From IMG/VR virus record IMGVR_UViG_3300030202_003733, positions 96,001 through 160,000 of that record: a DNA stretch of 64,000 nucleotides; one strand, given 5' to 3'. Of this stretch, positions 47,040-63,824 are shown piece after piece. The notes under the pieces are model-generated. The model was given only the letters and a program-made list of their open reading frames with translations. It was not told the DNA's origin and did no database searches. The stretch's first letter is position 1. The number at the start of each line of letters is the position of its first letter. The stretch comes from a virus. Position numbers and translations under genes: made by a program.

Positions 47040-47040
47040 T

Positions 47041-49711: not shown

Positions 49712-50469
49712 GATAGCTCCTCCAATCCCTTTTTAAGCAGTTCTTCCTCTTTAGGGATTATAGTGTGATATTGCCACACACCTTCCATATAGCTTACTCC
49801 CTTACCTTTAATAGTGTCTGCTATGGTAACGGTGGGCTTGTCGCTAATTTTAAGGGTGTTGGCCAGATCATCAAAATCATGGCCGTTCACCACCCTGGTC
49901 TCAAAGCCAAAACTCTCAAACTTGTCTTTAAGGGGCTCTAGACCAAGCAATTCTTCAGTTTCTCCCAAGATTCCCATTTTATTTCTATCGATTATCAAGT
50001 GGATATTATTAATATTGTGATGAGCAATAAACATAAGACTTTCCCAAACAGATCCTTCGTATAACTCCGCGTCACCTAACAAAACATAAACGTTTTTATC
50101 GTTACCGTATGCTAAGCCCGCAGCATATCCTATTCCGTTTCCAAGTGAACCACCAACAAAACTACATCCGGGGATCGATTGGTCAGCGTGCAGCCTAAGA
50201 ATGCCCTCTGGGGTGCAATATTTTTCTAGTTCTTCCGCTTCGACAAAACCCAGATCAACCAATATCGGGTATACAGCAGGCGAGCCATGCCCCTTGCTAT
50301 AGATAACAACATCTTTGTTGGGGTCAAAATCAGTTTTTTTATCAAAATAAAGCGAAACTAATATATCCACACACGAAAGGCAGCTAGCTAGATGCCCTGC
50401 TCCCGACCTAGTTTTAAACTCAAAAACTCTTCTTCTCACTGATTTTGCTATTGTTTCTAGTTCGCTCAT
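49708..50469 (-). CDS. Transketolase, N-terminal (TPP-binding) subunit
   Basis: GHLASCLS, YSKGHG, GSLGNGIG, LGDAELYEGSVWE...DRN TPP motif, TIKGKGVSYME. Confidence 0.9.
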   Translation of the reverse strand: MSELETIAKSVRRRVFEFKTRSGAGHLASCLSCVDILVSLYFDKKTDFDPNKDVVIYSKGHGSPAVYPILVDLGFVEAEELEKYCTPEGILRLHADQSIPGCSFVGGSLGNGIGYAAGLAYGNDKNVYVLLGDAELYEGSVWESLMFIAHHNINNIHLIIDRNKMGILGETEELLGLEPLKDKFESFGFETRVVNGHDFDDLANTLKISDKPTVTIADTIKGKGVSYMEGVWQYHTIIPKEEELLKKGLEELS

Positions 50470-52013
50470 TAATCCCCCAATATTTTTCTTTTTAATTTTA
50501 TTTTTGTCATTTCCAAAATATCTTCCCTTGCTTTTTTTCCGCTCTTATCTTCTATAAGTTGCAAGAATGGCTCGTATGTATGGTATTTTGTCCAAGCCTC
50601 ATCTCTAAACTTTAATATTTCTGCCGGCGATAAATCCTCCGTTGGAAGAGGCAATGTTTCGTATGAGTGAAAAGAGTAACCAACGTAATCATCGGGAAGG
50701 GCCAGCCCATCATCTAGAGCATCTCTATATAGCCTACTTCCAGGCAATGCCATAGCTGCATACATATTCCAACCTCTAGTACATAATTCCATGCTTAGGT
50801 CTAGTGTTTTCTGCATCGACTCGTGAGTGTCTCCCGGTAGGCCTACTAGGTAATTGGCCATTATGTCTATGTCGGCGTCGTGTACCATATCAATTATGTA
50901 ATTGATATCCACGTCCTTGAATTTGCCCTTAGAGGCCTCCAAACGAACCTTAAGGTCACCACTTTCTATACCAAGGCACAACCATTTAATGCCAGCTTCT
51001 CTTATCAACTTTAGATTCTCGGGTCTTTTCACTGTGTCTACTCTAGAGTAGGCCCACATATTTAGGAATTCCCCATAGCCCCTTTCTTTTATCATATTAC
51101 ACAATGGTACATAATACTTTCTATTTAATAAAAACATTTCATCGCTGATCCTTAGAGTCTTCACACCTAAGGCAACCAATTTATCTATTTCTTTAATAAT
51201 GAGTTCAGGGGACCAAAACCTCATCCCAGAGTAATTTGATGCAACACCAATTGGTTGATTGTCGTTTCTGTTTACCACGTTAATCATACAGAAGGAGCAT
51301 TTAAACATACAGCCAAGAGAGGTGTATATTGCCGCATATGGGGCTCTGTCCTCTTCAATATAATTTGCGTGCCACATAGGAGATCTGTAAAGATCCAGAG
51401 GCTGCTCTTTATATGGTAAAAGATCCCAAGCATACCCAGGTAGGTCTATATCCATCCTGTTCTGGGGCACGGGCCTCTCGGGAGGAGTCAAGAACGGAAC
51501 TCCGTTCTGCTTAAACCCTATACCTTTAATCTTTTCTAGATTCTCATGAGCAAAATTATCACAAGACAATAAACTCCACAGAGCATAGACTCCATCATTG
51601 GTTAGAATCATATCAATGCTATCTTCTTTTTCTAAGGTTTCATAAGGAAGGGCAGACATATGTGAGCCCACAAAACATATTGGGTTTCTCACTCCGTAAT
51701 TCTTTACAGCCTTGGACAACCGAACTGCTCCACTCATGTTCACAGTTCCGGCATTTACATTTTGTCCATAAACAACAAAGCACACAAGCCTGGGGTTCAG
51801 CTTGGCTATCCTTTCGGCACTTTCTTGGTCGCTTAAATTCTCAGCAGTGGTGTCCATAATAGCCACGTTGTAACCCACAGATCTGCACGACTGTGCCAAC
51901 AATAGACACCACGTTGGCGTTTCTATTGCTGAATATTTGTTTGAGAGGCCCTGATATATTTTACCACTGTTATTCGGCCTAACGAATAATACATCTAAGG
52001 TTTTGTTGTTCAA
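50469..52013 (-). CDS. Cobalamin-binding radical SAM enzyme (class B methylase-like); start revised to TTG at 52013
   Basis: N-terminal B12-binding Rossmann (ICFVGSHMSALP); CMFKCSFC CxxxCxxC; GIESG; AGGAG SD site 7 nt before the TTG. Confidence 0.85.
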   Translation of the reverse strand: MNNKTLDVLFVRPNNSGKIYQGLSNKYSAIETPTWCLLLAQSCRSVGYNVAIMDTTAENLSDQESAERIAKLNPRLVCFVVYGQNVNAGTVNMSGAVRLSKAVKNYGVRNPICFVGSHMSALPYETLEKEDSIDMILTNDGVYALWSLLSCDNFAHENLEKIKGIGFKQNGVPFLTPPERPVPQNRMDIDLPGYAWDLLPYKEQPLDLYRSPMWHANYIEEDRAPYAAIYTSLGCMFKCSFCMINVVNRNDNQPIGVASNYSGMRFWSPELIIKEIDKLVALGVKTLRISDEMFLLNRKYYVPLCNMIKERGYGEFLNMWAYSRVDTVKRPENLKLIREAGIKWLCLGIESGDLKVRLEASKGKFKDVDINYIIDMVHDADIDIMANYLVGLPGDTHESMQKTLDLSMELCTRGWNMYAAMALPGSRLYRDALDDGLALPDDYVGYSFHSYETLPLPTEDLSPAEILKFRDEAWTKYHTYEPFLQLIEDKSGKKAREDILEMTKIKLKRKILGD

Positions 52014-52024
52014 AATAAAACTCC

Positions 52025-52954
52025 TTAATAGTTCGCATACCAAGGCGATTCAATAATACTATACGCCTTTATAAGCTGCTCAATACCAACATCAAGATTG
52101 TATTGGCAGTCAAAACCTTTATCATAAAATTTTTGACTGCTCACAATATAATCTCTCTTATCGAGGTCCTGGGTAAACTCTGCGAAAATAACCTCTAGAG
52201 GAACATGTTGTTTAATTTTCTCTGATAACTGTAGTTTGTTCATATTAAGAGCGTCGTTCCCAACATTATAAGTTTCGTTTTTACAGTGCTCCCAATTATC
52301 GATTACAAACTTAAAGGCCCTGCACACGTCGTGCAGGTGAACATAATTTCTCATGTATTTGTGTTCGTATAAAACTAAGATCTTCTCCCTAAGTGCCTTC
52401 AAAACAAAATTATTAACCAATAAATCCGTTCTCATCCTAGAGGATGGCCCATAGACCGTAGCCAGTCTAAAGGTTACATGATTTTCAACATTTTGATATT
52501 CTTCCTCAGCAGCCACTTTGGTCACGCCGTAGAGGGATATTGGTTTGAGGGGAGATTCTTCGGTACAAAATTTGCCGCTCTCTCCTACACCATATCCTGA
52601 GTTGGTGCAGGGGTATATAACCTTTTGGTCACTGCGCTTGTTTTGGGCAATCCAGCGGTTAACCTCGTGGTTTACCTCGGTTGCTTCGCGTGGATTATCT
52701 CTACATAGCGGAAATCCGACTAGGGCAGCGAGTGGAATTATAATGTCCGCTTCTTCAACATATTTTTGTAGATGATTTATATTACGGACATCGCCTTTAA
52801 CAAAAAAGAAGTTTGGGTTAGTCGTATACCGCAACAGGGAATCGGGCCCAAACATAAGCTTATCATAAACGGTGACCTTGTGGCCATCATCAAGAAAATA
52901 TTGGGCGAGTTCGCTGCCGATGTACCCAGCGCCTCCAGTTATCAGTATGTTCAT
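52025..52954 (-). CDS. NAD-dependent epimerase/dehydratase
   Basis: ITGGAGYIGS, LAALVG, YGVTK (YxxxK), FRLATVYG.S.RMR.DLLVN. Confidence 0.9.
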   Translation of the reverse strand: MNILITGGAGYIGSELAQYFLDDGHKVTVYDKLMFGPDSLLRYTTNPNFFFVKGDVRNINHLQKYVEEADIIIPLAALVGFPLCRDNPREATEVNHEVNRWIAQNKRSDQKVIYPCTNSGYGVGESGKFCTEESPLKPISLYGVTKVAAEEEYQNVENHVTFRLATVYGPSSRMRTDLLVNNFVLKALREKILVLYEHKYMRNYVHLHDVCRAFKFVIDNWEHCKNETYNVGNDALNMNKLQLSEKIKQHVPLEVIFAEFTQDLDKRDYIVSSQKFYDKGFDCQYNLDVGIEQLIKAYSIIESPWYANY

Positions 52955-53241
52955 ATGGAGATCCTCCCAAGCAGTATATCTTTAAACATTAACCAATCAC
53001 ATAATTTTGCCTTTAAAGGGGAAGAAAAAGCCGCAGGGGTGTTCTTCTCATAAAAGTAATGACCAGCCCATGCAAATGGGTAAATTATAAATGGTACAAT
53101 AGGTATAAACCACCAATACCATTTATATAGTATTGCAATCGTAAATATTATTGTAACCCATTGCCCCATAAAATGCAAGCGTCTACAATATTTATTTTGG
53201 TGCAAAGATAAATAATACCTATAATATTCTTTAATTGTCAT
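52951..53241 (-). CDS. Mpo1-like (DUF962) small membrane protein (start revised to 53241)
   Basis: YLSLHQNKYCRRLHFMG...FAWAGHYFYEKNTPAAF match the DUF962 His motifs. Confidence 0.8.
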   Translation of the reverse strand: MTIKEYYRYYLSLHQNKYCRRLHFMGQWVTIIFTIAILYKWYWWFIPIVPFIIYPFAWAGHYFYEKNTPAAFSSPLKAKLCDWLMFKDILLGRISI

Positions 53242-53638
53242 CCCAGCTAATCTCCCAATCCTTAAACTCAGCCGCCAGACAATCAATTTTATAATCCTTG
53301 CGACCACCGACAACTTCTTGTATTTTATTTTTTGCCGTGTTGCGTATGCCATTGAGTCCATGGGTTAATTCAAGATTGTTACCATCTTTTATACCTTTTC
53401 TATAGTTTGATTCATTGTGCCATATATGCAAGTTCATTTGTGATAAAACAACGACTGACCTTATGAAGTTTGCATCTATACCTTCCGAGTCAGGAAGAAG
53501 CAAATTAATGTCATGGCATATTTCTTCTATCTCTTTGGCGTATTCCTCTTTGTGGTCTGGTATAAATACCTCTTTGAGTTGCGCGATGGTGAGTCTATCG
53601 ATAAGTTCAGACAAGGTTGGTAAATATTTCCTAAGCAT
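53231..53638 (-). CDS. Helical hypothetical protein, DUF6165-like
   Basis: SELIDRLTIAQLK...NLHIWHNES...NGIRNTAKNKI resembles the 'GELIDKITILEIK...LW..ED..R...K..IN' pattern of glycan-locus proteins. Confidence 0.45.
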   Translation of the reverse strand: MLRKYLPTLSELIDRLTIAQLKEVFIPDHKEEYAKEIEEICHDINLLLPDSEGIDANFIRSVVVLSQMNLHIWHNESNYRKGIKDGNNLELTHGLNGIRNTAKNKIQEVVGGRKDYKIDCLAAEFKDWEISWDDN

Positions 53639-54545
53639 TATCTTGGCCTCCCTGTATAGACGCCATTATCGCGCCAATAACATTGTCATCCAATTGTGTA
53701 TGATTAACAGCTAAATGATAATTTTCTTCCACATATGGAAGCATTTGTTTATATTTTTCAAAAGACAGGCTTTTTAAAATATCATAAAGCTCTGTGGGCG
53801 AATTGAATCTAAGGACACCCTTCTCATTAAAGTAATCACCTAAATTTTCACATCCCCAAAATATAGGGACTGTACCACATCTAAAAGCATCAATAAGGGT
53901 TTCAGTAAAGTAATTATTATTTTTTGCATTCATTACGGTTATACTAAAGCAGTAATCTTTTAAACACAAATATTTATCTTTTTTATCGAACTCTTTAAAT
54001 GCACTTCCCCAAAAATCCACCTCAACCTTATCTTTAATTAAATTTGTTATTATGTGCCTAAGCTGGTGGCCTGGGGCCCAGTTTTTATTTGAAGCTATGT
54101 GGGACAGTAATTTGTTTTTCTGATATAGTTTGGCCTTCTCATCGGATATCCATGTGCTACCAGTTGATATTTTTACATACTTTGGCCCTCTAGCTAGCAG
54201 CCCTTCATCATGAGTTACAATAAGATCAAAATCATCCTCAAGTGATAAAATAAATTTGTACGCAAACGGGTGTATTTGTTTGCATTCATGCAGAAAAGCA
54301 ACTTTGTAATCACTCTCCACTTGTTTTACTAGTGGGGACATAATGTCTTTATCAGTAAAAACAGTTATTCTTTGCTTCTCATCTGGGAGAACTGCTGGGG
54401 ATATGGCGCAGTCCTGCGCCCCTCCGTAGTATTTCCAATTTACACTTGTAGGTGCAATAGCAGCACCAGTGAGACTCCAGTTATCTCCTATTTTATTTAA
54501 CGGCGTCATTAGACTGTCATAAAGAGCAACTTCAACCTTCTCCAT
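53631..54545 (-). CDS. Glycosyltransferase, GT10 (fucosyltransferase)-like
   Basis: YCFSITVMNAKNNNYFTETLIDAFRCGTVPIFWG corresponds to the GT10 motif YKFxLxxENS..xYxTEKxxDA...GxVPIYWG. Confidence 0.7.
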   Translation of the reverse strand: MEKVEVALYDSLMTPLNKIGDNWSLTGAAIAPTSVNWKYYGGAQDCAISPAVLPDEKQRITVFTDKDIMSPLVKQVESDYKVAFLHECKQIHPFAYKFILSLEDDFDLIVTHDEGLLARGPKYVKISTGSTWISDEKAKLYQKNKLLSHIASNKNWAPGHQLRHIITNLIKDKVEVDFWGSAFKEFDKKDKYLCLKDYCFSITVMNAKNNNYFTETLIDAFRCGTVPIFWGCENLGDYFNEKGVLRFNSPTELYDILKSLSFEKYKQMLPYVEENYHLAVNHTQLDDNVIGAIMASIQGGQDNA

Positions 54546-54837
54546 TAAAGAAATCCTCCGTATTTATCGCCTTATCACAAATAAATAAATCATAATGTGG
54601 TTTACCAACCTTTACCTCTGTATGTTTAACTCCCCACTCCACCAATTGGCTCTTGGTTAGCGGTAGATAATCTACCATTGATACAGAACCTCTAGCAGTC
54701 CAGTAAGTAACTGTGTGGCCTTGATCATACAATTTATTCATTTTTTCGATGTTTTCTTTTATCGGAATTGCATCAGCGTAATTTCTTTGCCCTTCATATT
54801 TGCAAATGGTTTCATCTATGTCAACATAATATATCAT
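54532..54837 (-). CDS. HAD-superfamily phosphatase (capsule-biosynthesis type)
   Basis: YVDIDETIC (DxDxT), WTARG, KPHYDLFICDKA. Confidence 0.85.
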   Translation of the reverse strand: MIYYVDIDETICKYEGQRNYADAIPIKENIEKMNKLYDQGHTVTYWTARGSVSMVDYLPLTKSQLVEWGVKHTEVKVGKPHYDLFICDKAINTEDFFNGEG

Positions 54838-55202
54838 TAGTCCCCCTTTAGGATTCTGTAGCTGTCGCTGTCAAAGTGCTGGGTAGAGAATTCGAATAGC
54901 TCCGTGTCCTCTAGGGCCTCCATTTGATGACGCAGGCCTCTAAAAACGTGGAAGTTGTCGCCCTTGGTCAAAACTCTCTCTGCGGCCCTGCTTAAATCGT
55001 CTCCAGTCGAGTATCTCACTAACATTTTACCCGACTGAATATAGAATACTTCATCTTTTAATTTGTGATAGTGCCAAGAACACTTCTTACCTTTTACGAA
55101 ATAAAGAAGTTTACCACAATACTCATCACAATTAACAATCCACTTCTCAAAACCCCAGCCTTTTGGCACAAAATTCATGGGTAGCTGAATATCACTTACC
55201 AT
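54837..55202 (-). CDS. Cupin (mannose-6-phosphate/sugar isomerase-like)
   Basis: KGWGFEKW...CSWHYHKLKDEVFY...GLRHQM cupin metal motifs. Confidence 0.8.
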   Translation of the reverse strand: MVSDIQLPMNFVPKGWGFEKWIVNCDEYCGKLLYFVKGKKCSWHYHKLKDEVFYIQSGKMLVRYSTGDDLSRAAERVLTKGDNFHVFRGLRHQMEALEDTELFEFSTQHFDSDSYRILKGD

Positions 55203-56014
55203 ATTGTTTTACCCCCATCAATTATAAGATTGGTGCCAGTCATATAACTACTCGCGTCAGAGCACAAGAAAGCAATCGCCCCCTTATATTCATCAATATC
55301 TGCCATCCTTCCCATGGGAATAATATTGGATAATTTTTCAACAAAGTCTTCAGGGTGGTTGTTGTATACTCCCGTAGGACTAAGACAATTAACTCTAATC
55401 CCCCTTTTTGCAAAATAAACAGCCAGATATTTAGTCATACCAATAATTGCCCACTTTGCGGCTGAGTATGTGACGGGTTTGACATTTTGCGCCTCCTCGG
55501 CAACACCATCTTTTCTATAGATCCTCTGATCCGGGGCGATAACACCGAGATCGGAAGAAATATTTAAAATTACGCCGCCGCCTGTAGCCAGCATTTTATT
55601 AGCCACCGCTTGAGAACAGAAAAAAGTTCCATTTATGGCGGCGTCAATACCCTCAAACCAATATTCTTTTGTCATTGTTTCAAATCTGCTAGTAGGTGAC
55701 AGGCCATCCTCTTTCTTCACCTTGGGGTCTTTTGCCGCATTATTAATTAATATGTCAATCTTGTCATAACAATCCAAAACTTTTTGGATTGATTCAGGAT
55801 CAGTAACATTCATGTGATGCCAAGTAGCAGAACCATCCCCATACTTTGAGTTTAGGTTATTCGCTTTTTCCAAAGCTCTATCAACATGGTGATCTGTTAT
55901 AATAACATTACCGCCAAATTCAATTATTGCCTCGGCATGCTTTGGGCCTAAAAGCCCGCCTGCGCCGGTTATGAGAGCTGTTTTGCCCTCTAGATTAAAA
56001 ATATCACGCCCCAT
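55196..56014 (-). CDS. SDR oxidoreductase, PtmA-like (start revised to 56014)
   Basis: TGAGGLLG, INNAA, NISSDLG, YSAAK, TKYLAVYF...IRVNCLSP.GV; AGGAGA SD site before 56014. Confidence 0.8.
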   Translation of the reverse strand: MGRDIFNLEGKTALITGAGGLLGPKHAEAIIEFGGNVIITDHHVDRALEKANNLNSKYGDGSATWHHMNVTDPESIQKVLDCYDKIDILINNAAKDPKVKKEDGLSPTSRFETMTKEYWFEGIDAAINGTFFCSQAVANKMLATGGGVILNISSDLGVIAPDQRIYRKDGVAEEAQNVKPVTYSAAKWAIIGMTKYLAVYFAKRGIRVNCLSPTGVYNNHPEDFVEKLSNIIPMGRMADIDEYKGAIAFLCSDASSYMTGTNLIIDGGKTIW

Positions 56015-56780
56015 TATACATCTCCTGTAAAATGTCTCTATGTCTAAGAACAGTGGGGACCTCCTCTCCGGATGGACCCCTAGCTGTTTGTAGAGTATAT
56101 AAGTTGTTATAACCAAGTTCTTTAAGTATGGCAAATATTAACTTAAAATTTGTTTCCCCTTTCCCTGGGGGGTATGACATACTGCCGCCATGTCGGATTC
56201 TATCTTTAAGATGAACATTGTTAATCTTATCAAAAATAAAATCAATATAATTCTCATGATTTACAAACATGCTTGTCATATTACCGGTATCGTAAGTTGC
56301 GTAAAACTTATCCGAGGCTTCAAGAACTTCCATAAGGGGTCGAGCAGCCATTTCTGCCTCAAAAGAAAATTTTAAACTAGGAAATCTGTTCGATATTGAT
56401 AATATATTTTTTTTGAAATACATTCTTAATTCGTCATCCACCAACGAACTTTGCTCTAATAATGGTATAGTAACAAAGTCGATGTCGTGTCTTACGGCAG
56501 CATCGCATATAGGAATAAGATTACTCTCCAAAAAAGGTAGAGTGAAAATTCTTTTATCAACAAGATTGTCAGCACATATTGAACTAATTGGTAAATCTTG
56601 CTTATTAAAATTTAAATTTAATATTGGATTTGTTGAAAAGGAGTTTTTTGTTACAATCCATTCAATATGATTAAAATTATGTTGCTGTAGTAAATCGAAT
56701 TCCCTTCTCCATTGCATAGGGGTGTCTTGGAACCCTTCCAGCGGCGGCGAGAATCTGCCTTGAATAATTCCTAGATCCAT
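56004..56780 (-). CDS. Sugar-phosphate isomerase/epimerase (xylose-isomerase-like TIM barrel)
   Basis: GIIQGRFSP, HIEW, FEAE, YDTGN, NVHLKDR, PGKGETNF, YTLQ. Confidence 0.8.
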   Translation of the reverse strand: MDLGIIQGRFSPPLEGFQDTPMQWRREFDLLQQHNFNHIEWIVTKNSFSTNPILNLNFNKQDLPISSICADNLVDKRIFTLPFLESNLIPICDAAVRHDIDFVTIPLLEQSSLVDDELRMYFKKNILSISNRFPSLKFSFEAEMAARPLMEVLEASDKFYATYDTGNMTSMFVNHENYIDFIFDKINNVHLKDRIRHGGSMSYPPGKGETNFKLIFAILKELGYNNLYTLQTARGPSGEEVPTVLRHRDILQEMYNGA

Positions 56781-57215
56781 TTATAACTCCTCAACAATTT
56801 CTAAAAACACTCCGCCAAGTGCCTTGGGGGTTCGTGTAAAAAACACCTTTACCTTCCCTCCGGGAGGTTCTAGGGGCAAATTTACATTAATACAACCACT
56901 ATTTTGAAGCTGTGTGAACAACTCCTCGGCGTCTGAGACCGTGAACGCTGCGTGGGAGCAACCAAAATCTGTCAGTTTCCAGAAAGATTCTTCAAAAACT
57001 TGAGGCAAATCATAAAACTTTAGCAACTCCAGTAAACCGCCCTTAGAGTCGGCCAATTTAACTGTCCGTACCTTAGCTCCCGGTACACCGAGCATAGTAC
57101 TAATATACGAGCCCTCCTCAAGCATATCCTTTGTTACAACCAAATTAAAATTTTTACTATAAAAATTTATGGATTGGTCGATATCATCTACAACTATACC
57201 AGTGTGTCTAATCAT
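56781..57215 (-). CDS. VOC/glyoxalase-family protein
   Basis: IRHTGIVVDDIDQSINFY...LLELL...SHAAFTV...FLEIVE. Confidence 0.85.
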   Translation of the reverse strand: MIRHTGIVVDDIDQSINFYSKNFNLVVTKDMLEEGSYISTMLGVPGAKVRTVKLADSKGGLLELLKFYDLPQVFEESFWKLTDFGCSHAAFTVSDAEELFTQLQNSGCINVNLPLEPPGGKVKVFFTRTPKALGGVFLEIVEEL

Positions 57216-57918
57216 TTTGTTTACTCACATATGCCAGCAACATAACTTCGTTCGAAAATCTAATAAATTTATTAATTGAGTTAGGTAACCAAGATCTCTT
57301 AAAAGGTCTAAACGGAATAGGAAAAATAGATATAATCTTTGGTATAATTTTTAGTATAGAATTCCTCCAGACAAAAGGCAATTGATAAAAATATTCTACT
57401 TTTACATCTTGAAATCCTGACATTTTCAGGGCCTCTTCTAACGAGTGTCTGGTGAAGGGTGTGACGTGCGTGTGGTCTATGTAAAACGGCCCCCAATAGC
57501 TATGCTCCCAACTTGGTGTCATTATTACAGCTTTACCTCCGGGCAATAAAACTCTGTGTGCCTCACTCATAAGATTCAAGGGGTTGTTCATATGTTCTAT
57601 GACAGATTTACTAAAAACAAAATTTATTGACCCATCCTTAAAAGGTAGTTTATCAATTTCCAAATCAGCCTTGTGTATTTCATAATCACTATCAGCAGGG
57701 CTAATATCTACGCCCATGGCTTCAAATCCTAAATTAGAAAAAACGTTTAAAAATTCACCATCGCCACAGCCAATATCTAAAATTTCTAAACCTAAACCCT
57801 TGGGTCCAAAAAAGTTTTTAGTTAAAAACACACCAAGTTTGCTTGGATAATCAGAGTCTCTTTTTCCGTAAGTGAACTCAAGGTATTTCTTATCTTTTAG
57901 AATATCTTTAGATGCCAT
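57208..57918 (-). CDS. Class I SAM-dependent methyltransferase (start revised to 57918)
   Basis: ILDIGCGDG, GVDIS, FVFSKSVIEH, RVLLPGG, DHTHVTPF. Confidence 0.85.
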   Translation of the reverse strand: MASKDILKDKKYLEFTYGKRDSDYPSKLGVFLTKNFFGPKGLGLEILDIGCGDGEFLNVFSNLGFEAMGVDISPADSDYEIHKADLEIDKLPFKDGSINFVFSKSVIEHMNNPLNLMSEAHRVLLPGGKAVIMTPSWEHSYWGPFYIDHTHVTPFTRHSLEEALKMSGFQDVKVEYFYQLPFVWRNSILKIIPKIISIFPIPFRPFKRSWLPNSINKFIRFSNEVMLLAYVSKQND

Positions 57919-59170
57919 CGTTCTCTTGCTCCAGACATGTTTTAACAACAAGTGCAGATTCAACAATCGCATCCTTTGAAATTGTAAGCGGGGGCCCAAA
58001 TTTGATTGAGTTTCTACCAGTATACACAGGTAGAACGCCGTTTTGAATACATCTCTTGGCTACATTTGTTGCTGTCTCTGTGTCATGAAAAATAACGCCC
58101 GCAACCATCCCACGACAATTTACATCAGCAACAAGTGGTGACTCTAGTAGTTCTTCAAAATAACTTTCAAATACAGGTATTTTGTCTTGTAAATCTTTTT
58201 GAAATTTGTCGCTTGTTAAAAAATTAATATTTGCCAATGAAGCGGCAGAACACAATGCATTTCCAGCATGTGTTCCCCCAACAACTGCTTTTTTATCAAC
58301 ATCTATAATCTCTTTGGTTCCCAGTAAGGCAGACATGGGTAATGAGGAAGATATCCCCTTGGCCAAACATATAAGGTCTGGCTTTATGTCGCTTGTGTAG
58401 GACATGTATCCGTATAGAGTACCCATCCTATAAAAACCAGCCTGTATTTCATCAAAACAAATCAATATACCGTGTTCTTTGGCAAAATCATAAAGGTCAC
58501 GAATATATTGGTCCGGGTACATTAAAGCTCCCCAACCTTGGTATGTTTCAAGAAAAAAAGCAGCTATATCTTTAGGGTCTGGCAGAGCCGTGGGGTCGAA
58601 AACACAGTTTTTAGTCGGAAAGTCTATAAATTTGATACTTTCATCCTTAAAACCACACCACTCAGTTGTGGTTTCATCACCACAAAGTAAATCAGACCCA
58701 AGTGTCCTGCCATGATAGCTACCCCTGAATGATATTGTATATTTTCTATCATTCTTCGCGGCCCAAAATTTAATTAATTTTATTGCTATGTCTGTTACTT
58801 CTGAACCAGAGTTTAACAAAACTGCCTTTTCAAAGTGATCAGGCGATATTTCCAACAATCTATCAATAAAATCTGCCTTAGCTTGGTTGTTATAAAGGAA
58901 GGAAAACCACATATCCTTGTTAAGTTGTTGTTGAATAGCACTTTTGATCTCTGGGTTTGCATGTCCAGCGTTAGCCACAAATATCCCCGCTGTCATATCG
59001 ATGTATTTATTACCGTAAGTGTCCCAGACACTAAAATCTTTAGCTCTTTCCCAATCTATAAGCTGCTGGCTCAGCGCTACTGACTCCCGGTCGCTTTTCT
59101 TTTTTGATAGCGTAGTTGGCGCAAACATCACCTTGCTAAGTATGTCTCTATTATTTGTCTTTATCATCAA
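57908..59170 (-). CDS. Class III PLP-dependent aminotransferase
   Basis: YIDMTAGIFVANAGH, NSGSEV, YHGRT, ICFDEIQAGFYRMG, CLAKGISS, GGTHAGN. Confidence 0.88.
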   Translation of the reverse strand: MMIKTNNRDILSKVMFAPTTLSKKKSDRESVALSQQLIDWERAKDFSVWDTYGNKYIDMTAGIFVANAGHANPEIKSAIQQQLNKDMWFSFLYNNQAKADFIDRLLEISPDHFEKAVLLNSGSEVTDIAIKLIKFWAAKNDRKYTISFRGSYHGRTLGSDLLCGDETTTEWCGFKDESIKFIDFPTKNCVFDPTALPDPKDIAAFFLETYQGWGALMYPDQYIRDLYDFAKEHGILICFDEIQAGFYRMGTLYGYMSYTSDIKPDLICLAKGISSSLPMSALLGTKEIIDVDKKAVVGGTHAGNALCSAASLANINFLTSDKFQKDLQDKIPVFESYFEELLESPLVADVNCRGMVAGVIFHDTETATNVAKRCIQNGVLPVYTGRNSIKFGPPLTISKDAIVESALVVKTCLEQENDGI

Positions 59171-59952
59171 GTAATCCCCCTCGACATCCAGTCTGACATG
59201 TCGCTAGTTTTTAGTAAATACCTCAGAACATCAGGTGGAGACCCGCTTCTCATCATTGCTTGTATTGTATCTAATTGGTAACCGGTGTCTATTTCCAATG
59301 TATAATCAGTTACTAAAGGAAATACTTTACTACCAAATGCCTGTCCGTGAGCGGACAAAGTTTCTGGTTTTACTAAATCGATGTAGCCATTCGGCTGATA
59401 TGCTTTTGGGAAGACTTGTCGAGGAAGATTTGTGTAATTTTTATTCCCGTTAAAATCCTCAAAAAATCCCTTAAAGTATTTTTGTCCTAATTTTAAACAC
59501 TTGTACGGGGACTCTGGAAGCTCGTGTGCAGACCTAGCTGCCGTAGACTCGGCGTACTCAGCGCTGTTTTGATATAAATCTATGTAATCATCTATTTTTT
59601 TTGGATCTCTAATCGGTGTGGTGGGCCTAATAAAGGCTATACACTCTTCCTCCCCTCCCCCTTCATAGTAGCCCTGCTTTGTCAAAAAATGATTAATAAC
59701 ATCAAAATCGGTGGATGTGTCGGTTGCATATCTTGCGGGTCTCATAAATGGAACTTCAGCACCATATTTTATTGCTTCCCTTGCTATTTCATCACTATCC
59801 GTAGATACAACTATCCTATCTATTCTTTTTGACATTTTACAGGCAGCTATGGAATACGCTATTAGCGGAAACCCTACCACCTTTGCGATATTCTTTCTAG
59901 GGACGCCCTTGCTGCCGCCCCGTGCAGGAATAAGGGCTGTTATTCCGGCCAC
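59167..59952 (-). CDS. neuA: Acylneuraminate (nonulosonate) cytidylyltransferase
   Basis: LIPARGGSKGVPRKNI, VSTDSDEI, RPTTP, PRQ...YQPNG, EIDT. Confidence 0.9.
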   Translation of the reverse strand: MAGITALIPARGGSKGVPRKNIAKVVGFPLIAYSIAACKMSKRIDRIVVSTDSDEIAREAIKYGAEVPFMRPARYATDTSTDFDVINHFLTKQGYYEGGGEEECIAFIRPTTPIRDPKKIDDYIDLYQNSAEYAESTAARSAHELPESPYKCLKLGQKYFKGFFEDFNGNKNYTNLPRQVFPKAYQPNGYIDLVKPETLSAHGQAFGSKVFPLVTDYTLEIDTGYQLDTIQAMMRSGSPPDVLRYLLKTSDMSDWMSRGIT

Positions 59953-60779
59953 TGATGATTCCTAAGTTTATCTCTGACCGGAACTTCCGACTCTTGCACA
60001 GTCTTTGTGGGGCTGCCAAGGGACAGTTCTACTGTCCTAATATCTTTAACCAGTCTCGTTAGATCATCTAATTCAATAGACGCAGGCTGGTCCGAGCCAT
60101 ACATGGTTTTATCAAGTGTAATGTGCCTCTCGATACAGGTAGCGCCCATGGCGGCTGCCGAGACGGATACAATACGGCCAGTCTCATGGCCACTATAACC
60201 AGCGGCACACTTAAATACATCCCTAAGCGTCCACATAGCCCTTAAGTTAGCGGCCTCATTCTTCATAGGATAAGTGCTATTACAATGCATTAATGTAAAT
60301 GGACAATCGTGATGATTAAATGTGTTTACAACACGCTCAATTTCTTCCATAGTGCTCATGCCTGTGGAAATAAATGTGTGCCTGCCTTCCCTAGCAATTT
60401 CCTCAACCAGTTCCTTATATGTTAGAAGCGCCGAAGCGATCTTGTTGTGTTTCAGATTGTACTGCTTTAAAAAGTCTTGACTTTTTAAATCCCAAGCAGA
60501 GGCAAACCAATCGATTCCCACCGCTTTACAATACCGATCAATTTCATCATATTCTTGCTTTCCAAATTCGAGCCCAAGTTTTTGCTCTCTATTGGTTGTC
60601 CCCCAGGGGCTTTCTCTCGGTCTGTCCAAATCAGCTTTCGTATAGACTTTTTCTACACACCTCTTTTGAAATTTAACAGCGTCACAGCCTGCTCTGACCG
60701 CACCATCAATCATCTTCTTAGCGATGTCTAAATCGCCATTATGGTTAATACCAATTTCTGCTATAATATAAACACTCAT
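59940..60779 (-). CDS. neuB: N-acetylneuraminate (nonulosonate) synthase family, lacking the C-terminal SAF/AFP domain
   Basis: IIAEIGINHNGD, DAVKFQK, KIAS, ISTGMS, MHCNSTYP, GYSGHE, IERHITLD..MYGSDQ.AS; only 279 aa. Confidence 0.9.
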   Translation of the reverse strand: MSVYIIAEIGINHNGDLDIAKKMIDGAVRAGCDAVKFQKRCVEKVYTKADLDRPRESPWGTTNREQKLGLEFGKQEYDEIDRYCKAVGIDWFASAWDLKSQDFLKQYNLKHNKIASALLTYKELVEEIAREGRHTFISTGMSTMEEIERVVNTFNHHDCPFTLMHCNSTYPMKNEAANLRAMWTLRDVFKCAAGYSGHETGRIVSVSAAAMGATCIERHITLDKTMYGSDQPASIELDDLTRLVKDIRTVELSLGSPTKTVQESEVPVRDKLRNHQWPE

Positions 60780-60794
60780 AATAACTCCTAATGT

Positions 60795-60823
60795 ATACTA
60801 ACTCTTAACAACAATAATGTCAA
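60795..60823 (-). promoter_or_regulatory. sigma70-type promoter for the neuB-neuA module
   Basis: TTGACA (60823-60818, overlapping the upstream TGA stop), a 17 nt spacer, TAGTAT (60800-60795), then AGGAG and the ATG at 60779. Confidence 0.7.
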
Positions 60824-61749
60824 GGCAATTCTCCTTTTACAAAAACATCGTGCCAAGAGCTTCTGTCTAAATTGATAATTTCAATATCAAGCTTCTCGGC
60901 ACTCTCCTTTATAATTTTCATATCGTCTAATATAAAATCCCTAAAAACGTGCTTCCAGTGGCCAACGTTTGGAAAATTTATTGGTAAATTAGCGTCTGTA
61001 TTTGCATAACCAACACTATAATCAAGGTCCATTCCGGTAATATATATTGGGTTACAACCCATATGTATTGCTAACATAATAGCAAACATACCCACTGTTT
61101 GACCTGGGCCTGCGTGTTTGTTGTGCCCTGATATCTCCTGTAGGTGTTCTTGAAGGGTTTTATTTATAAAATGATCACAACAATCACCGTGTGACCTCCA
61201 AGCGGGAGCTATGTGGCCATGCACTTGGGCAACCACGGGGTGTACTCCGTGTGTATTTGGTCGGCTCCACATTTGTGGATTGTTACCATAATCTCTATAG
61301 TCTAAATTTTTGTGGTTATCATAATGATGTTTAAAATTTTTAAGTATCTGTGAGCACTTGTGTTTCTTAAAATGTTTTGTATCGTAAGGCAAATAATCAC
61401 ATTTTAAATGTTTTTCTATAAAATCAAATTTCGTCAAGTCCGCTGTTGCGTTGTACAGCAGGGGAACATTGTATTTATTAAATACGTTCTTTGGATACCC
61501 ACGAGAGTTCCATATATGATTTTCTGTAATTGAATTTTTAATTGTAAATTCGCCGTTAGAAACAACCCAGTAATCAGGTTTTTCAGTAAAAAAACTGTAC
61601 CACTCGTTCACAGAAAATCTTAATAACTTTTCTTCTCTTTGTAGTTTTTCTATACGGTCCTTAGAAAAATTTAAACTAGGGCCATGACAAGCCACGACAC
61701 ATGGTTTGTCCTTATGAGAATTACGAATTGTATCAAGTTCTATTTTCAT
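60820..61749 (-). CDS. DUF115/Maf- or CstII(GT42)-like putative CMP-nonulosonate transferase
   Basis: VVACHGPSL...RFSVN...PDYWVVSN...FAIMLAIHMGCNPIYITGMDLDY matches the GxGPSL...N...A..LG...IYL.G.D fold. Confidence 0.7.
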   Translation of the reverse strand: MKIELDTIRNSHKDKPCVVACHGPSLNFSKDRIEKLQREEKLLRFSVNEWYSFFTEKPDYWVVSNGEFTIKNSITENHIWNSRGYPKNVFNKYNVPLLYNATADLTKFDFIEKHLKCDYLPYDTKHFKKHKCSQILKNFKHHYDNHKNLDYRDYGNNPQMWSRPNTHGVHPVVAQVHGHIAPAWRSHGDCCDHFINKTLQEHLQEISGHNKHAGPGQTVGMFAIMLAIHMGCNPIYITGMDLDYSVGYANTDANLPINFPNVGHWKHVFRDFILDDMKIIKESAEKLDIEIINLDRSSWHDVFVKGELP

Positions 61750-62249
61750 ACTTTTAAAATTAAATCCACATACTTAGCTGAAATTTTTTCGCCGGGAACA
61801 GAGAAGCTTCGAACTAAACCAGAGTAGCCCACGTATCCTAATATGGCTTTAGCAGCGTCCTGGACAGATATGAGTTCCATAACTCCGCTAGGTTTGACCG
61901 AGCCTTCAGAGAGGCCTTTTATGACTGATTTGTGTGATATAAAAGTGGGAAGTCTTACGACTATGGACTTTAAAGAATTGGCCAGTAAATATGACTCTGC
62001 TGTGTGCTTATAATATGTATAATATGTTTCTTTTGTGGAACTAGTTGAAACAAATATAATTTTTTTATTTTTATGTTTCTCAACAAACTTCACAAATCTA
62101 TCGTACTCTTTTTTCTGTGAGCTTTCCGCTTTATTTGATACATTCCAAGTATGATAAATATAAACTTCGTCATCACAGGCAATAGAGTCTAAAATTAAAG
62201 CCAGAGAATTCCCTAGCTGACCCCTGCCCCCTACAAGCGTGACACTCAC
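61746..62249 (-). CDS. Short Rossmann-fold NAD-dependent epimerase/reductase-like protein
   Basis: LVGGRGQLG, FVST, YTYYK (YxxxK), VVRLP; much shorter than typical family members. Confidence 0.55.
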   Translation of the reverse strand: MSVTLVGGRGQLGNSLALILDSIACDDEVYIYHTWNVSNKAESSQKKEYDRFVKFVEKHKNKKIIFVSTSSTKETYYTYYKHTAESYLLANSLKSIVVRLPTFISHKSVIKGLSEGSVKPSGVMELISVQDAAKAILGYVGYSGLVRSFSVPGEKISAKYVDLILKV

Positions 62250-62998
62250 AACTCTTCCAGCGGGCTACATCTTTTCATCCCCCTAATTCTTTGTTCCGTT
62301 GCGAGTTGTGTTGCGTGATCTACCTTATCAACATTTAATGGGTTGTCGCGATTATATACATAAAGAACTTTATTTATAAAATGACTTTTATGTCCCGCAA
62401 GTTCAAATAAGGGGTAAGTCCAAGCTAGGTCCCACGCGTACATAAAATGATGTTCTCTGTCGCCGGACTCTACAAAACACTCGTCACTAAGGCTATCCCA
62501 AAGTCCATATTTAAAAGTCTGTAAATGCGAAGTTGTCCATGGTGCTTCTCTAATACAGTTATTATCGATTACATAATCTGGAACTTTTTTAGAAAATTTG
62601 CCAACGATACCAGACGGGTATTCTACATAACTGCCGTAAGTCATCCAACAAGAGTGTTTGATATATTCTTCATTCAATATTTTAAGTGAATCTTTTGTGG
62701 CAAGCCAATCATCACCATGTAGCACAACGACAACATCCTCTTTACTGGGTGCAGTTGTTGAGAGTGCGCTGCGTATGTTCTCAAATGGGTATTTTTTTTC
62801 AGTGTTTTCTATTAAAAGAAATCTATCGTCGCCGTCAATTGTTTTTTTTATAATCTCCACCGATTCATCAGTAGATAAATCGTCAATAAGAATACACTGG
62901 AAATTTTTATAGCTCTGATGTTTAACACTCAATAACGTTTTTCTGATCCATTTATCGACATTATAGAAAGGTATGACCACTTTAAAATGATTAGACAC
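62246..62998 (-). CDS. Glycosyltransferase family 2
   Basis: VVIPFYNVDKWI...ILIDDLSTDES...VLHGDDW. Confidence 0.85.
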   Translation of the reverse strand: MSNHFKVVIPFYNVDKWIRKTLLSVKHQSYKNFQCILIDDLSTDESVEIIKKTIDGDDRFLLIENTEKKYPFENIRSALSTTAPSKEDVVVVLHGDDWLATKDSLKILNEEYIKHSCWMTYGSYVEYPSGIVGKFSKKVPDYVIDNNCIREAPWTTSHLQTFKYGLWDSLSDECFVESGDREHHFMYAWDLAWTYPLFELAGHKSHFINKVLYVYNRDNPLNVDKVDHATQLATEQRIRGMKRCSPLEEL

Positions 62999-63824
62999 CT
63001 AGTGCCTCCAACACCATAATTGGTATTTCGTCTCTTTTGTTTTCCATCAAATCTATCAAAGCCTCGCCCTTGTTGACAAACCAAGATTCGCCTGCGGCTC
63101 CTACTAAACTATTTGTTACTACTTTCATATTCATCATCCTTGCCTCCACAACTATCCTTGAGAGAGTCTCGGGCGTTTTAGGAAAGAAAACTAGTGTTTC
63201 ATTAGCACCAAGCTTTTCTAAAAATTGGTCATGTTCACAGGGCATTATTAATTCGTATTCTATTTTTTTTTCCGTACAATACTGCTTAGAGTGTTCTGTA
63301 CCTTTGTGCAATATATTAGAATACATAATGGAACTGCGACCAGATTTAGTGTTTTTAGACAAAAGACGTAATGTATCTAAAGTTTCTTTCGCCCACAAGT
63401 TGCCGCCAACACTAATAATATTGTTCATTTTTAAATTTTTCTTAACTATATTGGCATGAAAATCCGATTGGCAAAAAACAGCTTTTGCTGTTTTATAAAA
63501 CTCATAATTAATAATCGCTTTGTTCGGAGCCTTAAAATCTTTATAAGCAGCAGGGTTTCTATTGCGTAAATATTTGTGATCATGTTCATAAATAATATAT
63601 TTTTTTCTTTGAATCGCACTTTTGTTTTGTTCAGATAAATTTATAAAGTTAGAAACTATAATAGCATCACTGCTTAAAATATTGTATTCGCTAACCAAGT
63701 GGCTGTTCACACATAAAACTTCATGTCCTTTACTACGCAGTAAATCAATTAGAACTGAGTTGTTCAGTTCTCCGCCACCGTTAACTTGGTCTGCAAAGAA
63801 ATCTGCTATGAAATGAATTTTCAC
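62991..63824 (-). CDS. Glycosyltransferase (GT-B, GT4-like)
   Basis: GGGELNN N-terminus; FFPKTPETLSRIVVEARMMN corresponds to the ExxGxxxxEA donor-binding motif; GTG start. Confidence 0.65.
   Translation of the reverse strand: MKIHFIADFFADQVNGGGELNNSVLIDLLRSKGHEVLCVNSHLVSEYNILSSDAIIVSNFINLSEQNKSAIQRKKYIIYEHDHKYLRNRNPAAYKDFKAPNKAIINYEFYKTAKAVFCQSDFHANIVKKNLKMNNIISVGGNLWAKETLDTLRLLSKNTKSGRSSIMYSNILHKGTEHSKQYCTEKKIEYELIMPCEHDQFLEKLGANETLVFFPKTPETLSRIVVEARMMNMKVVTNSLVGAAGESWFVNKGEALIDLMENKRDEIPIMVLEALGV

Follow-up and report, generated by a model that had tools for sequence, protein, structure and literature searches.

A tightly packed phage operon for the probable synthesis via a phosphorylated intermediate, activation and transfer of an unusual, aminated and methylated sialic-like sugar

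The locus at positions 54532-61749 of the window, as the whole 64,000-nt stretch of DNA analysed here is called, raises the question of which sugar a phage would make with a NeuB-family synthase that ends before the SAF domain and is accompanied by a set of tailoring enzymes. The genes lie on the minus strand of a 183-kb viral record of a large uncultivated phage and form one tightly packed operon, in which they overlap or abut with a sole intergenic gap of 40 nt. The gene order and families given in an earlier note were borne out by profile matches, with all genes on the minus strand; overall, the observation of that note was confirmed and its interpretation was supported in part. The most likely product of the operon is an unusual sialic-like sugar with amino and methyl groups, which would be made via a phosphorylated intermediate, activated and transferred. 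The features of the locus are as follows:

60820-61749, minus strand: Maf/MptE-like (DUF115) transferase, putative CMP-ulosonate transferase, 309 aa (PF01973, 50.1 bits, cut-off 34.6 bits)
60780-60819, minus strand: intergenic gap, sigma-70-like match TTGACA-17-TAGTAT at 60823-60795
59940-60779, minus strand: putative SAF-less NeuB-family PEP:aldose(-phosphate) condensing synthase, 279 aa (PF03102, 6e-71)
59167-59952, minus strand: putative CMP-ulosonate synthetase (CTP_transf_3), 261 aa (PF02348, 7.8e-19)
57908-59167, minus strand: class III (omega-type) PLP aminotransferase, 419 aa (PF00202, Aminotran_3, 5e-69)
57208-57918, minus strand: SAM-dependent methyltransferase, 236 aa (Methyltransf_23/11/25)
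56781-57215, minus strand: VOC/glyoxalase-fold protein, candidate epimerase or isomerase, 144 aa (PF00903, 1.3e-8)
56004-56780, minus strand: xylose-isomerase-like TIM barrel (AP_endonuc_2), 258 aa (PF01261, 33.3 bits, cut-off 31.1 bits)
55196-56014, minus strand: classical SDR oxidoreductase, "PtmA-like", 272 aa (adh_short_C2, 6.5e-40)
54837-55202, minus strand: small metal-binding cupin, 121 aa (Cupin_2)
54532-54837, minus strand: minimal HAD-type phosphatase, putative ulosonate-phosphate phosphatase, 101 aa (motif I DIDET)

The likely true starts of the methyltransferase and SDR genes are the ATG codons at 57918 and 56014, each with a ribosome-binding site and giving lengths that match a 236-aa homologue in phage contig L089 and the SDRs of related phages, respectively. 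The sigma-70-like sequence before NeuB is a consensus match only and a weak candidate promoter, because 49 such matches were present in the scanned region against 34.5 expected by chance.

The synthase was confirmed to be 279 aa long and to end without the SAF domain: Pfam NeuB spans its residues 23-258, its homologues have 274-303 aa, and the last 13 nt of its gene are shared with the CTP_transf_3 gene, which leaves no room for such a domain. The catalytic invariants are all present (K36, K113, S116, H198, E217, H219, D230), while the score on TIGR03569 was 260 bits, under the cut-off of 399.65, and the closest PDB entry was the SAF-less Leptospira enzyme 6NCS (~38% identity, E 2e-38). In the phylogeny, which the earlier note had proposed as a check, the enzyme fell outside the Neu, Leg and Pse synthases in a large SAF-less clade (support 99/97), distinct from the Leg/Neu-type synthases and from a Bacteroides Kdn-9-P-synthase-like group; the Leg-type clade was supported at 100/100, and the placement of the Kdn-9-P-synthase-like group relative to the other two was weakly resolved (91/65).

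The genomic neighbourhood of the clade differed from that of the Leg-type enzymes: a HAD phosphatase of the KdsC/Kdn-9-P type was located within 10 kb in 36 of the 50 SAF-less loci and in 1 of the 14 Leg-type loci, the SAF-less cases including fusions to the CMP-transferase (Anaerolineales) and to a GmhA-like isomerase (Lachnospiraceae). These HADs scored highest on the Kdn-9-P phosphatase model NF058599 (156 bits). Furthermore, the KFQKR motif and the RP.ESPWG loop were common to the phage-clade NeuBs and the Kdn-9-P-synthase-like group, whose KFQKR-bearing members adjoin equivalog-level Kdn-9-P phosphatases, while free-sugar enzymes do not have the KFQKR motif and the Leg-type enzymes carry KFQTF and KAEYQ instead. 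A sugar-phosphate route is therefore supported, and the earlier proposal of a phosphorylated, non-N-acetylated precursor with a 9-phosphate-type route was well founded. On this basis, a general scheme in which a tailored ulosonate is made via a sugar phosphate and activated with CMP appears fairly probable; the fuller reading, a self-contained, translationally coupled operon that would make a CMP-activated tailored 3-deoxy-2-ulosonic acid via a phosphorylated intermediate and then transfer it, is put forward tentatively.

In the phage, neither a KdsC-type HAD nor a GmhA/SIS isomerase was present, and the place of the former is filled by the 101-aa HAD, which belongs to another family. Its earlier designation as a phosphatase was backed by the intact DxDxT motif (DIDET) and a match to PDB 9IQW, a 134-aa "capsule biosynthesis protein" (E 7.6e-13), but the family HMM match was weak (TIGR01689, 30.9 bits, cut-off 162). 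This HAD was absent from a variant cassette (L091) and not detected in locus L006.

The putative genes for activation and transfer flank NeuB. The best PDB matches of the CTP_transf_3 protein were the CMP-Neu5Ac synthetases 6IFD, 9FTB and 1EYR, and its score on the PseF model (115 bits) was under the cut-off of 205. The AF2 model of the transferase (pLDDT 94) resembles in fold the CstII-type CMP-sialyltransferases and Maf: the Foldseek search of PDB returned CstII/CstI at the top (E 3e-5, prob 1.0, TM 0.4-0.5), followed by archaeal MptE, Maf 5MU5 and ST8SiaIII. Related phage contigs likewise have an MptE-like gene immediately before NeuB, on its upstream side.

The length of the backbone depends on the aldose phosphate. 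The closest bacterial relatives of the phage NeuB, with 61-68% identity and in one shared 100/100 subclade, belong to Lachnospiraceae, where NeuB adjoins HAD and GmhA-like genes, GmhA being the sedoheptulose-7-P isomerase type; these hosts are Gram-positive and would presumably need no dedicated isomerase for mannose-6-P. Genes resembling the HldE-type heptose-7-P kinase/nucleotidyltransferase were found both in the phage island and in the Lachnospiraceae locus L005, although those of the phage may instead belong to another pathway, for a deoxy-sugar, that is encoded further downstream in the island. The GmhA-like part scored 163 bits on TIGR00441, under the equivalog cut-off, as did the HldE-like proteins on their own models, and specificity may therefore differ. 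Because of the NeuB/GmhA-like pairing in these relatives, which points to heptose phosphate no less strongly than to mannose-6-P, a ten-carbon product is slightly favoured over Kdn. Within the general scheme, a C10 backbone from heptose is accordingly given somewhat less than even weight, a C9 backbone of Kdn type is possible to a lesser degree, and any other backbone appears unlikely.

The foremost alternative, taken as a complete route, is a Kdn-type C9 pathway, which we regard as rather doubtful: PEP and mannose 6-phosphate, the latter coming either from the host or from the cupin in the role of a mannose-6-P isomerase, would give Kdn-9-P, from which the HAD would release Kdn and the CTP_transf_3 enzyme form CMP-Kdn, to be turned by the SDR/TIM pair, aminotransferase and methyltransferase into an amino-, methyl-nonulosonate. 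BT1714, the sole characterised bacterial NeuB-family enzyme of the phosphate route, makes Kdn-9-P (cited in PMC6200933). The KFQKR motif common to BT1714-like proteins and the phage enzyme and the NF058599 score of the clade's HADs point in the same direction, and the minimal core of viral locus L083, CTPt3-NeuB-cupin-HAD with the cupin between NeuB and the small HAD, is the exact set for making CMP-Kdn from fructose-6-P. However, BT1714-like proteins form a clade that does not include the phage NeuB and in which the SAF domain is retained (344 aa in orthologues of the characterised Kdn-9-P synthase), so that lack of this domain is not in itself a Kdn mark; the closest bacterial relatives have an isomerase of GmhA-like and not PMI-like type. 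The cupin, with an H-x-H-x4-E motif strongly conserved among phage homologues, was weakly and locally similar to L-ribose and D-lyxose/mannose isomerases, but did not match the Pfam mannose-6-P isomerase model (E <= 0.01). Its fold matches were unspecific, with the CapF cupin domain, KdgF and D-lyxose isomerase each at ~E 1e-5 and the keto-sugar epimerase domain of CapF ahead of D-lyxose isomerase. The cupin may act on a sugar(-phosphate) as an isomerase or on a keto-sugar as an epimerase; the earlier claim that it supplies the precursor was not established.

The genes proposed earlier to oxidise, aminate and methylate the product form a block that is retained both in related phages and in bacteria. 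Phage contigs L089, L090 and L092 keep the same gene order, and in L090 the TIM barrel and SDR are fused into one 526-aa ORF; the cassette was found in related uncultivated phages and in no isolated phage. A B12-radical-SAM gene (50469-52043) accompanies the cassette in several phages. The class III aminotransferase met no equivalog cut-off, its closest PDB relatives being isoleucine 2-epimerase and the acetylornithine, GABA, putrescine and ornithine aminotransferases, and the best NCBIfam model of the SDR was PRK09186 (165 bits, under the cut-off of 255). The VOC protein gave weak matches to methylmalonyl-CoA epimerase and glyoxalase I. The TIM barrel, for which a sequence search of PDB returned no relative and whose closest Atlas cluster was 100% viral, is a putative epimerase or dehydratase partnering the SDR.

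These enzymes might instead act before the condensation, the SDR, TIM barrel and aminotransferase making an amino-sugar phosphate by a logic like that of NtdC/NtdA/NtdB in kanosamine formation, and NeuB converting it to an amino-ulosonate phosphate with a backbone that could be C8 from pentose phosphate. The order of the steps is not fixed by any of the data, the bacterial SDR-TIM genes adjoin HAD and GmhA-like genes and not the CMP-transferase (L005), and the Ignavibacteria have the order TK-AT3-SDR-HAD-NeuB. In viral loci L081, L082 and L084, however, AT3, MT and VOC accompany the CMP-transferase with no SDR/TIM, which fits tailoring after activation better, and the kanosamine precedent relies on other enzyme families; amination first is considered improbable.

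An ordinary Leg/Pse-type pathway would draw on other genes of the same island, 6-16 kb downstream of the operon:

43594-44565: 4,6-dehydratase (RmlB-like score)
44562-45917 and 47041-48201: two DegT aminotransferases (profile scores)

With host enzymes, these would provide NeuB with free 2,4-diamino-2,4,6-trideoxyhexose, but this reading is very improbable and was disfavoured by clade, motif and missing precursor genes: the LegB, LegC and PseC scores were far under the cut-offs while the same genes scored better as RmlB and RfbH (473 bits for RfbH, above cut-off), NeuB is outside the Leg-type clade and has neither KFQTF nor SAF, and Epimerase_2 and PglD-like genes, which with PtmE-like and DegT genes occupy Leg-type loci (11/14 and 8/14), were each found in 1 of the 50 bacterial SAF-less loci. 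The earlier statement that the window has no LegB/C or PseB/C was thus strictly right, though it passed over the dehydratase and DegT genes. The absence of a UDP-GlcNAc 2-epimerase from the window extended to the whole 183-kb record, which contained no hydrolysing Epimerase_2/NeuC, PseG, NeuD/PglD-type N-acetyltransferase or SAF domain elsewhere on the contig; the record is ~81% complete and genes could therefore be missing.

For the favoured CMP-activated scheme, we infer the following sequence of reactions. The SAF-less NeuB would join PEP and an aldose phosphate, preferably D-glycero-D-manno-heptose 7-phosphate to give a ten-carbon 3-deoxy-ulosonate 10-phosphate, with mannose 6-phosphate to Kdn-9-P as a close second; the minimal HAD would take the phosphate off, and the CTP_transf_3 enzyme would form the CMP-sugar. 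The SDR and TIM barrel, aided by the cupin and/or the VOC protein, may then turn a hydroxyl into a carbonyl and carry out an epimerisation or dehydration beside it; the class III aminotransferase would convert this carbonyl to an amine. After methylation by the methyltransferase, the sialyltransferase-fold Maf/MptE-like enzyme would attach the product to its acceptor, a protein or a glycan and most probably one of the proteins of the virion. The phage cassette is one of a widespread enzyme set that has no characterised member.

The tailoring logic has parallels elsewhere. At C-6' of gentamicin, hydroxyl oxidation, transamination and methylation are accomplished by a dehydrogenase, a class III aminotransferase, an N-methyltransferase and a B12-radical-SAM C-methylase, which are alike in logic and not orthologous, an analogy only. 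The same is true for Kdo8N formation by KdnB/KdnA in Shewanella, where oxidation likewise precedes transamination with no sequence orthology; KdnB is of the Fe-ADH type rather than an SDR (PMC5125639). The Leptospira "sialic acid synthetase" 6NCS, the best solved match, shares the TIM barrel devoid of SAF with the phage NeuB, but at only ~38% identity, and no function for it was found in the literature looked at. In Maf (DUF115) O-glycosylation of flagellin with Pse/Leg, a DUF115/MptE-like gene is similarly located beside NeuB and the CMP-transferase; the fold of Campylobacter CstII/CstI and Maf is similar to that of the phage transferase at a TM of only 0.4-0.5, the phage enzyme is minimal (309 aa against ~630 aa in Maf 5MU5), and the phage system has no flagellin and a donor pathway that is neither Pse nor Leg. 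The animal Neu5Ac-9-phosphate route (NANS, NANP, CMAS) follows the same succession of PEP condensation with a phosphorylated sugar, dephosphorylation and CMP activation, and human NANS has a KFQK motif and an RPY..SWG loop; unlike the phage enzyme, NANS has retained its antifreeze-like/SAF domain. Its substrate is ManNAc-6-P, and tailoring enzymes are not part of the route. Finally, the CMP-Kdn pathway, described for Bacteroides thetaiotaomicron (BT1713 phosphatase and BT1714 Kdn-9-P synthase) and Prymnesium parvum (PMC6200933), also combines a NeuB-family synthase whose substrate is a sugar phosphate with a dedicated HAD phosphatase, of the KdsC/Kdn-9-P family as in the phage enzyme's bacterial relatives, and then a CMP-transferase. 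BT1714-like proteins share KFQKR and the loop after this motif with the phage NeuB, but have ~344 aa, a C-terminal SAF region and a clade of their own, while the phage has a different, 101-aa HAD, an aldose phosphate that may be a heptose, and, in addition, the SDR, TIM barrel, cupin, VOC protein, class III aminotransferase, methyltransferase and Maf-like transferase.

The source record, a linear IMG/VR virus of 183,023 bp of which the window covers bases 96001-160000, is estimated to be ~81% complete, and the baseplate genes in the window (gp25-like, 33171-33557; wedge subunit, 31332-33125), together with giant open reading frames lacking a family match, indicate a large tailed phage, with the aquatic "moraphages" (PMC12619734) as a possible affiliation. 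Beside the baseplate genes, the stretch 12150-40170 encodes very large proteins of 3244, 2202, 1139 and 1059 aa, none of which matched a Pfam or PHROG model and which are possible candidates for glycan acceptors. The genes of the region all lie on the minus strand, and the putative ulosonic acid operon takes up the third of a ~20-kb glycan island (43594-63824) that is farthest upstream. The gene content that the earlier note had listed for the operon was borne out by Pfam and NCBIfam: an MptE-like transferase, NeuB, a CTP_transf_3 protein, a class III aminotransferase, a methyltransferase, a VOC protein, a TIM barrel, an SDR, a cupin and a HAD phosphatase. The phage copy accommodates eleven genes in 7.2 kb, including its own transferase, with overlaps of 13 nt (NeuB/CTP_transf_3), 1 nt (CTP_transf_3/aminotransferase), 11 nt (aminotransferase/methyltransferase), 8 nt (methyltransferase/VOC), 11 nt (TIM/SDR), 7 nt (SDR/cupin), 1 nt (cupin/HAD) and 14 nt (HAD/GT10). 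The sole gap in the otherwise overlapping or abutting operon is one of 40 nt upstream of neuB, and the promoter match within it is to the consensus only, such matches being common in the region. The starts of the SDR and methyltransferase genes were reset to 56014 and 57918, respectively, both with a ribosome-binding site, after which the lengths equaled those of the homologues. The genes surrounding the operon were as follows:

43594-48201, minus strand: RmlB-like dehydratase, RfbH-type protein and a second DegT enzyme, assigned by profile scores
48734-50469, minus strand: split transketolase, just downstream of the operon
50469-52043, minus strand: B12-radical-SAM gene, just downstream of the operon
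52951-54545, minus strand: GT10 (fucosyltransferase-like), a 135-aa protein without a family match and an Mpo1-like protein, following the HAD gene
61746-62249, minus strand: conserved 167-aa protein without a significant family match, starting with a Rossmann-like GGRGQLG motif
62991-63824, minus strand: conserved 277-aa protein without a significant family match, with homologues in the NeuB-carrying viral contigs L083, L086, L089 and L090

The phage NeuB matched PF03102 at 239 bits (Pfam gathering cut-off 22.1) and is complete at 279 aa with intact catalytic residues: K36, K113, S116, H198, E217, H219 and D230 were all kept and were invariant in 45 family members. It scored below the equivalog cut-offs of both TIGR03569 (NeuB/LegI; 260 bits vs 399.65) and TIGR03586 (PseI; 188 vs 340). 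The antifreeze-like (SAF) domain was absent from the protein and from the whole record, in full agreement with the earlier description of the synthase as SAF-less. More than 8000 database matches were obtained, most of the closest being 274-285 aa long and 60-97% identical. Relatives among species-representative genomes belonged to Lachnospiraceae, Spirochaetes, Anaerolineales, Ignavibacteria, Chlorobi-like bacteria, Melainabacteria and one Asgard MAG, and a relative was also present in eight more viral contigs. A literature search found nothing on NeuB without a SAF domain, and we know of no characterised member of this clade.

The careful phylogeny (IQ-TREE, 45 sequences) resolved three distinct groups: the SAF-less clade (99/97), the Leg-type synthases of 330-346 aa (100/100) and a 344-aa group (99/93; loci L069-L072) resembling BT1714, the Kdn-9-P synthase of Bacteroides thetaiotaomicron, whose orthologues were identified indirectly as 344-aa NeuBs adjoining HADs with 243-254 bits on the Kdn-9-P phosphatase equivalog model. 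Within the SAF-less clade the phage enzyme grouped at 100/100 with sequences from Lachnospiraceae and further phage-like contigs. The NeuB phylogeny suggested in the earlier note, built here with Leg-type and BT1714-like sequences, separated the phage NeuB from the Leg/Neu-type clade and also left it outside the BT1714-like one. A sister relationship of the SAF-less clade to the Kdn-9-P synthases, as obtained in a quick tree that joined it to the BT1714-like group, was not retained: the careful tree put the latter group next to the Leg-type, weakly (91/65), and, because the two trees disagree on its position, the claim is limited to the three groups being distinct. In all of the HAD-associated NeuB groups K-[FL]-[QT]-K-R preceded a P..[ST]P[WF]G loop, vs KFQTF and KAEYQ in the Leg-type. 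This K-x-x-K-R motif of the phosphate-route enzymes, defined in this analysis rather than taken from a published definition, was present together with the loop in the phage NeuB. Its two extra basic residues beside the conserved PEP-site lysine, K39 and R40 in the KFQKR of the phage protein, are such as a phosphate-binding site would need, and they may represent a candidate for it.

The gene neighborhoods of the SAF-less and Leg-type synthases showed a profound difference. A HAD of the KdsC/Kdn-9-P type was located within 10 kb at 36 of 50 SAF-less loci vs a single one of 14 Leg-type loci, being either free-standing, fused to the CMP-transferase (Anaerolineales) or fused/adjacent to a GmhA-like SIS isomerase (Lachnospiraceae). 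The Leg-type loci carried Epimerase_2, PglD-like, PtmE-like, DegT and epimerase genes; Epimerase_2 and PglD-like genes were each encountered at 1 of the 50 SAF-less loci vs 11 and 8 of the 14 Leg-type loci, respectively. In the phage, neither a hydrolysing UDP/GDP-GlcNAc 2-epimerase (NeuC/LegG) nor PseG nor an N-acetyltransferase of the NeuD/PglD/LegH type was found in the 183-kb record (~81% complete). The earlier claim that NeuC, Leg and Pse precursor genes are missing holds in the strict sense; the window does contain an RmlB-like dehydratase and two DegT enzymes (43594-48201). One of the latter, the RfbH-type 3-dehydrase, scored 473 bits, over its cut-off, and a separate deoxyhexose pathway is a better assignment for the RmlB-like, RfbH-type and second DegT genes than LegB/C or PseB/C.

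Fusions of the CMP-transferase with the KdsC-type phosphatase (383-437 aa) adjoined the SAF-less NeuB in the Anaerolineales loci L031, L034, L038-L040, L043 and L045, accompanied there by PMT-like, sulfotransferase-like and Capsule_synth-like genes, and in the Bacteroidota loci L073 and L074. In the Lachnospiraceae loci L008-L024 the SAF-less NeuB repeatedly formed a block with a HAD+GmhA-like fusion, FkbM-type methyltransferases and a ~590-aa ThDP enzyme of the ALS-like kind, which may add a two-carbon branch; the cultured Waltera acetigignens (L013) is among the carriers, and [Clostridium] aminophilum KH1P1 (L021) has a variant with a separate KdsC-type HAD. Overall, a ThDP enzyme was present at many SAF-less loci, an ALS-like one at 19 of 50 and a split transketolase at 7 to 8 of 50.

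The phage record itself contained no KdsC-type HAD, GmhA-like isomerase, ALS-like ThDP enzyme or class IV aminotransferase in HMM searches in which the positive controls worked. Its 101-aa HAD is outside the KdsC/YrbI family (TIGR01670/NF058599) and is one of the EcbF/BcbF-like small HADs; among solved structures it resembles that of a small "capsule biosynthesis protein". Motif I reads DIDET (residues 6-10) and the motif II Thr lies within WTARG (~residue 47), while the downstream Lys and Asp of motif III/IV were picked by eye and are tentative. The TIM-SDR-cupin-HAD block of the phage occupies the place of HAD-GmhA-SDR-TIM in the most similar bacterial locus (L005, Lachnospiraceae), and in the viral locus L083 the CTP_transf_3, NeuB, cupin and HAD genes stand alone as a set of four.

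For the activation step, the phage CTP_transf_3 protein scored 68.8 bits (cut-off 22.6) and matched the CMP-Neu5Ac synthetases 6IFD, 9FTB and 1EYR at E values from 1e-21 to 1e-24, being below the PseF equivalog cut-off (115 bits vs 205.7). The SDR, TIM, aminotransferase, VOC and methyltransferase set recurred with the SAF-less NeuB in bacteria and phages; the genes for CTP_transf_3, class III aminotransferase, methyltransferase and VOC moved together in the viral contigs L081, L082 and L084, and a variant cassette in L006 and the viral L091 had a class IV aminotransferase instead of the last three. TIM and SDR were adjacent everywhere and in the viral contig L090 (NCBI GCA_025933435.1, 13548-15128) formed a single ORF of 526 aa; this apparent fusion, possibly a sequencing artefact, speaks for a joint action of both. 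The usual substrates of class III aminotransferases are aldehydes or ketones at a distance from a carboxylate, in keeping with a sugar hydroxyl being first oxidised and then aminated. The SDR had been called PtmA-like; its best NCBIfam model was indeed PRK09186, which we take to be PtmA (flagellin modification protein A), but at 165 bits it remained under the cut-off of 255. For the cupin two roles are conceivable, sugar isomerase or, in concert with the SDR, CapF-like keto-sugar epimerase: by sequence it gave only non-significant PDB matches, and its model (pLDDT 76) returned 281 generic cupin folds, including CapF, CENP-C, HppE, KdgF and D-lyxose isomerase, with similar scores.

The transferase that would use the activated sugar, a 309-aa protein, matched PF01973 (Maf/DUF115) at 50.1 bits (cut-off 34.6) with the alignment confined to profile positions 119-169. 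Neither it nor the TIM barrel had PDB relatives by sequence. The model of the MptE-like protein (pLDDT 94) matched CstII at E 3e-5 and Maf 5MU5 at E 3e-3, the CstII/CstI CMP-sialyltransferases being the closest folds, followed by MptE, Maf and eukaryotic sialyltransferases. The members of its family are ~311 aa long and abound in metagenomes, marine ones among them, and its gene preceded neuB in every related phage contig examined.

As to the backbone, a ten-carbon acid from heptose 7-phosphate was placed slightly ahead of Kdn, on the basis of four points. The bacterial NeuBs closest to the phage enzyme are paired with a GmhA-like isomerase, which scored 163 bits on the sedoheptulose-7-P isomerase model (cut-off 209); these bacteria are Gram-positive and were assumed to require a dedicated isomerase if the substrate is a heptose phosphate, but not if it is mannose-6-P; HldE-type kinase/nucleotidyltransferase-like genes occurred both in the phage island and in L005; and a 2026 preprint reports ulosonic acids that are CMP-activated, have a lengthened carbon backbone and lack known genes. 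This slight preference draws on sub-threshold family matches in the relatives and not on the phage's own genes. Kdn has in its favor that the conversion of mannose-6-P to Kdn-9-P (BT1714; cited in PMC6200933) is the only characterised bacterial precedent known to us. The SugarBase preprint uses m/z 297.09 as the marker of C9 acids and m/z 311.10 as that of higher-carbon ones. A broader reading, which we consider rather unlikely, is that the cassette supplies the genes hitherto lacking for the "higher-carbon ulosonic acids" known solely by mass spectrometry: the SAF-less NeuB would condense PEP with heptose 7-phosphate to the ten-carbon acid, or a nine-carbon acid would be lengthened by the linked B12-radical-SAM enzyme, with subsequent amination and N-methylation, and the minimal Maf-like sialyltransferase would coat the phage's own virion proteins with the product.

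The downstream half of the island (43594-52954) also included a split HldE-like kinase and nucleotidyltransferase, an RmlC-like epimerase, the split transketolase-like ThDP enzyme, the B12-binding radical SAM enzyme and a NAD epimerase. Its genes seem to make up another pathway, the product of which would be a 3,6-dideoxy or amino sugar, branched or C-methylated, and the set resembles the yersiniose-type logic of branched-sugar synthesis. The order GT10/135-aa protein/Mpo1-like protein (the latter of the 2-hydroxy fatty acid dioxygenase family) was kept in the related phage contigs L089, L091 and L092. On the other side, the 167-aa and 277-aa proteins sit among glycosyltransferases upstream of the operon.

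NeuB matches were present in 3 of 50,697 GenBank phage records, all with at most 44% identity; no isolated phage in GenBank has the cassette, no paper describing it was found, and literature searches on phages with nonulosonic acid or Maf brought up no such pathway encoded by a phage. As terminal sugars on the surfaces, flagella and capsules of bacteria, nonulosonic acids influence how phages and immune systems recognise the cell. To judge from the cassette, large environmental phages may produce an acidic sugar of their own and put it to use; glycosylation of this type is not known from isolated phages. The SAF-less NeuB clade, very widely distributed and strongly conserved, acts together with phosphatases, thiamine enzymes and an uncommon set of tailoring enzymes; its product, once known, would add a new branch to sialic-acid-like sugar chemistry and might also account for the CMP-linked higher-carbon ulosonic acids without known genes. 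The compact phage copy with its own transferase is a convenient unit for heterologous reconstitution.

By analogy, the gene set may be paralleled with inositol catabolism, which combines a dehydrogenase, an AP_endonuc_2 dehydratase, a cupin isomerase, a ThDP enzyme and a PfkB kinase. The textbook bacterial routes (Neu, Leg, Pse) to our knowledge all begin with nucleotide-linked amino sugars; in the scheme favored here an aldose phosphate would be condensed with PEP, dephosphorylated by the HAD, activated with CMP, tailored and transferred to the acceptor. Its logic of PEP condensation, phosphatase, CMP activation and transfer is that of the known ulosonic acid pathways.
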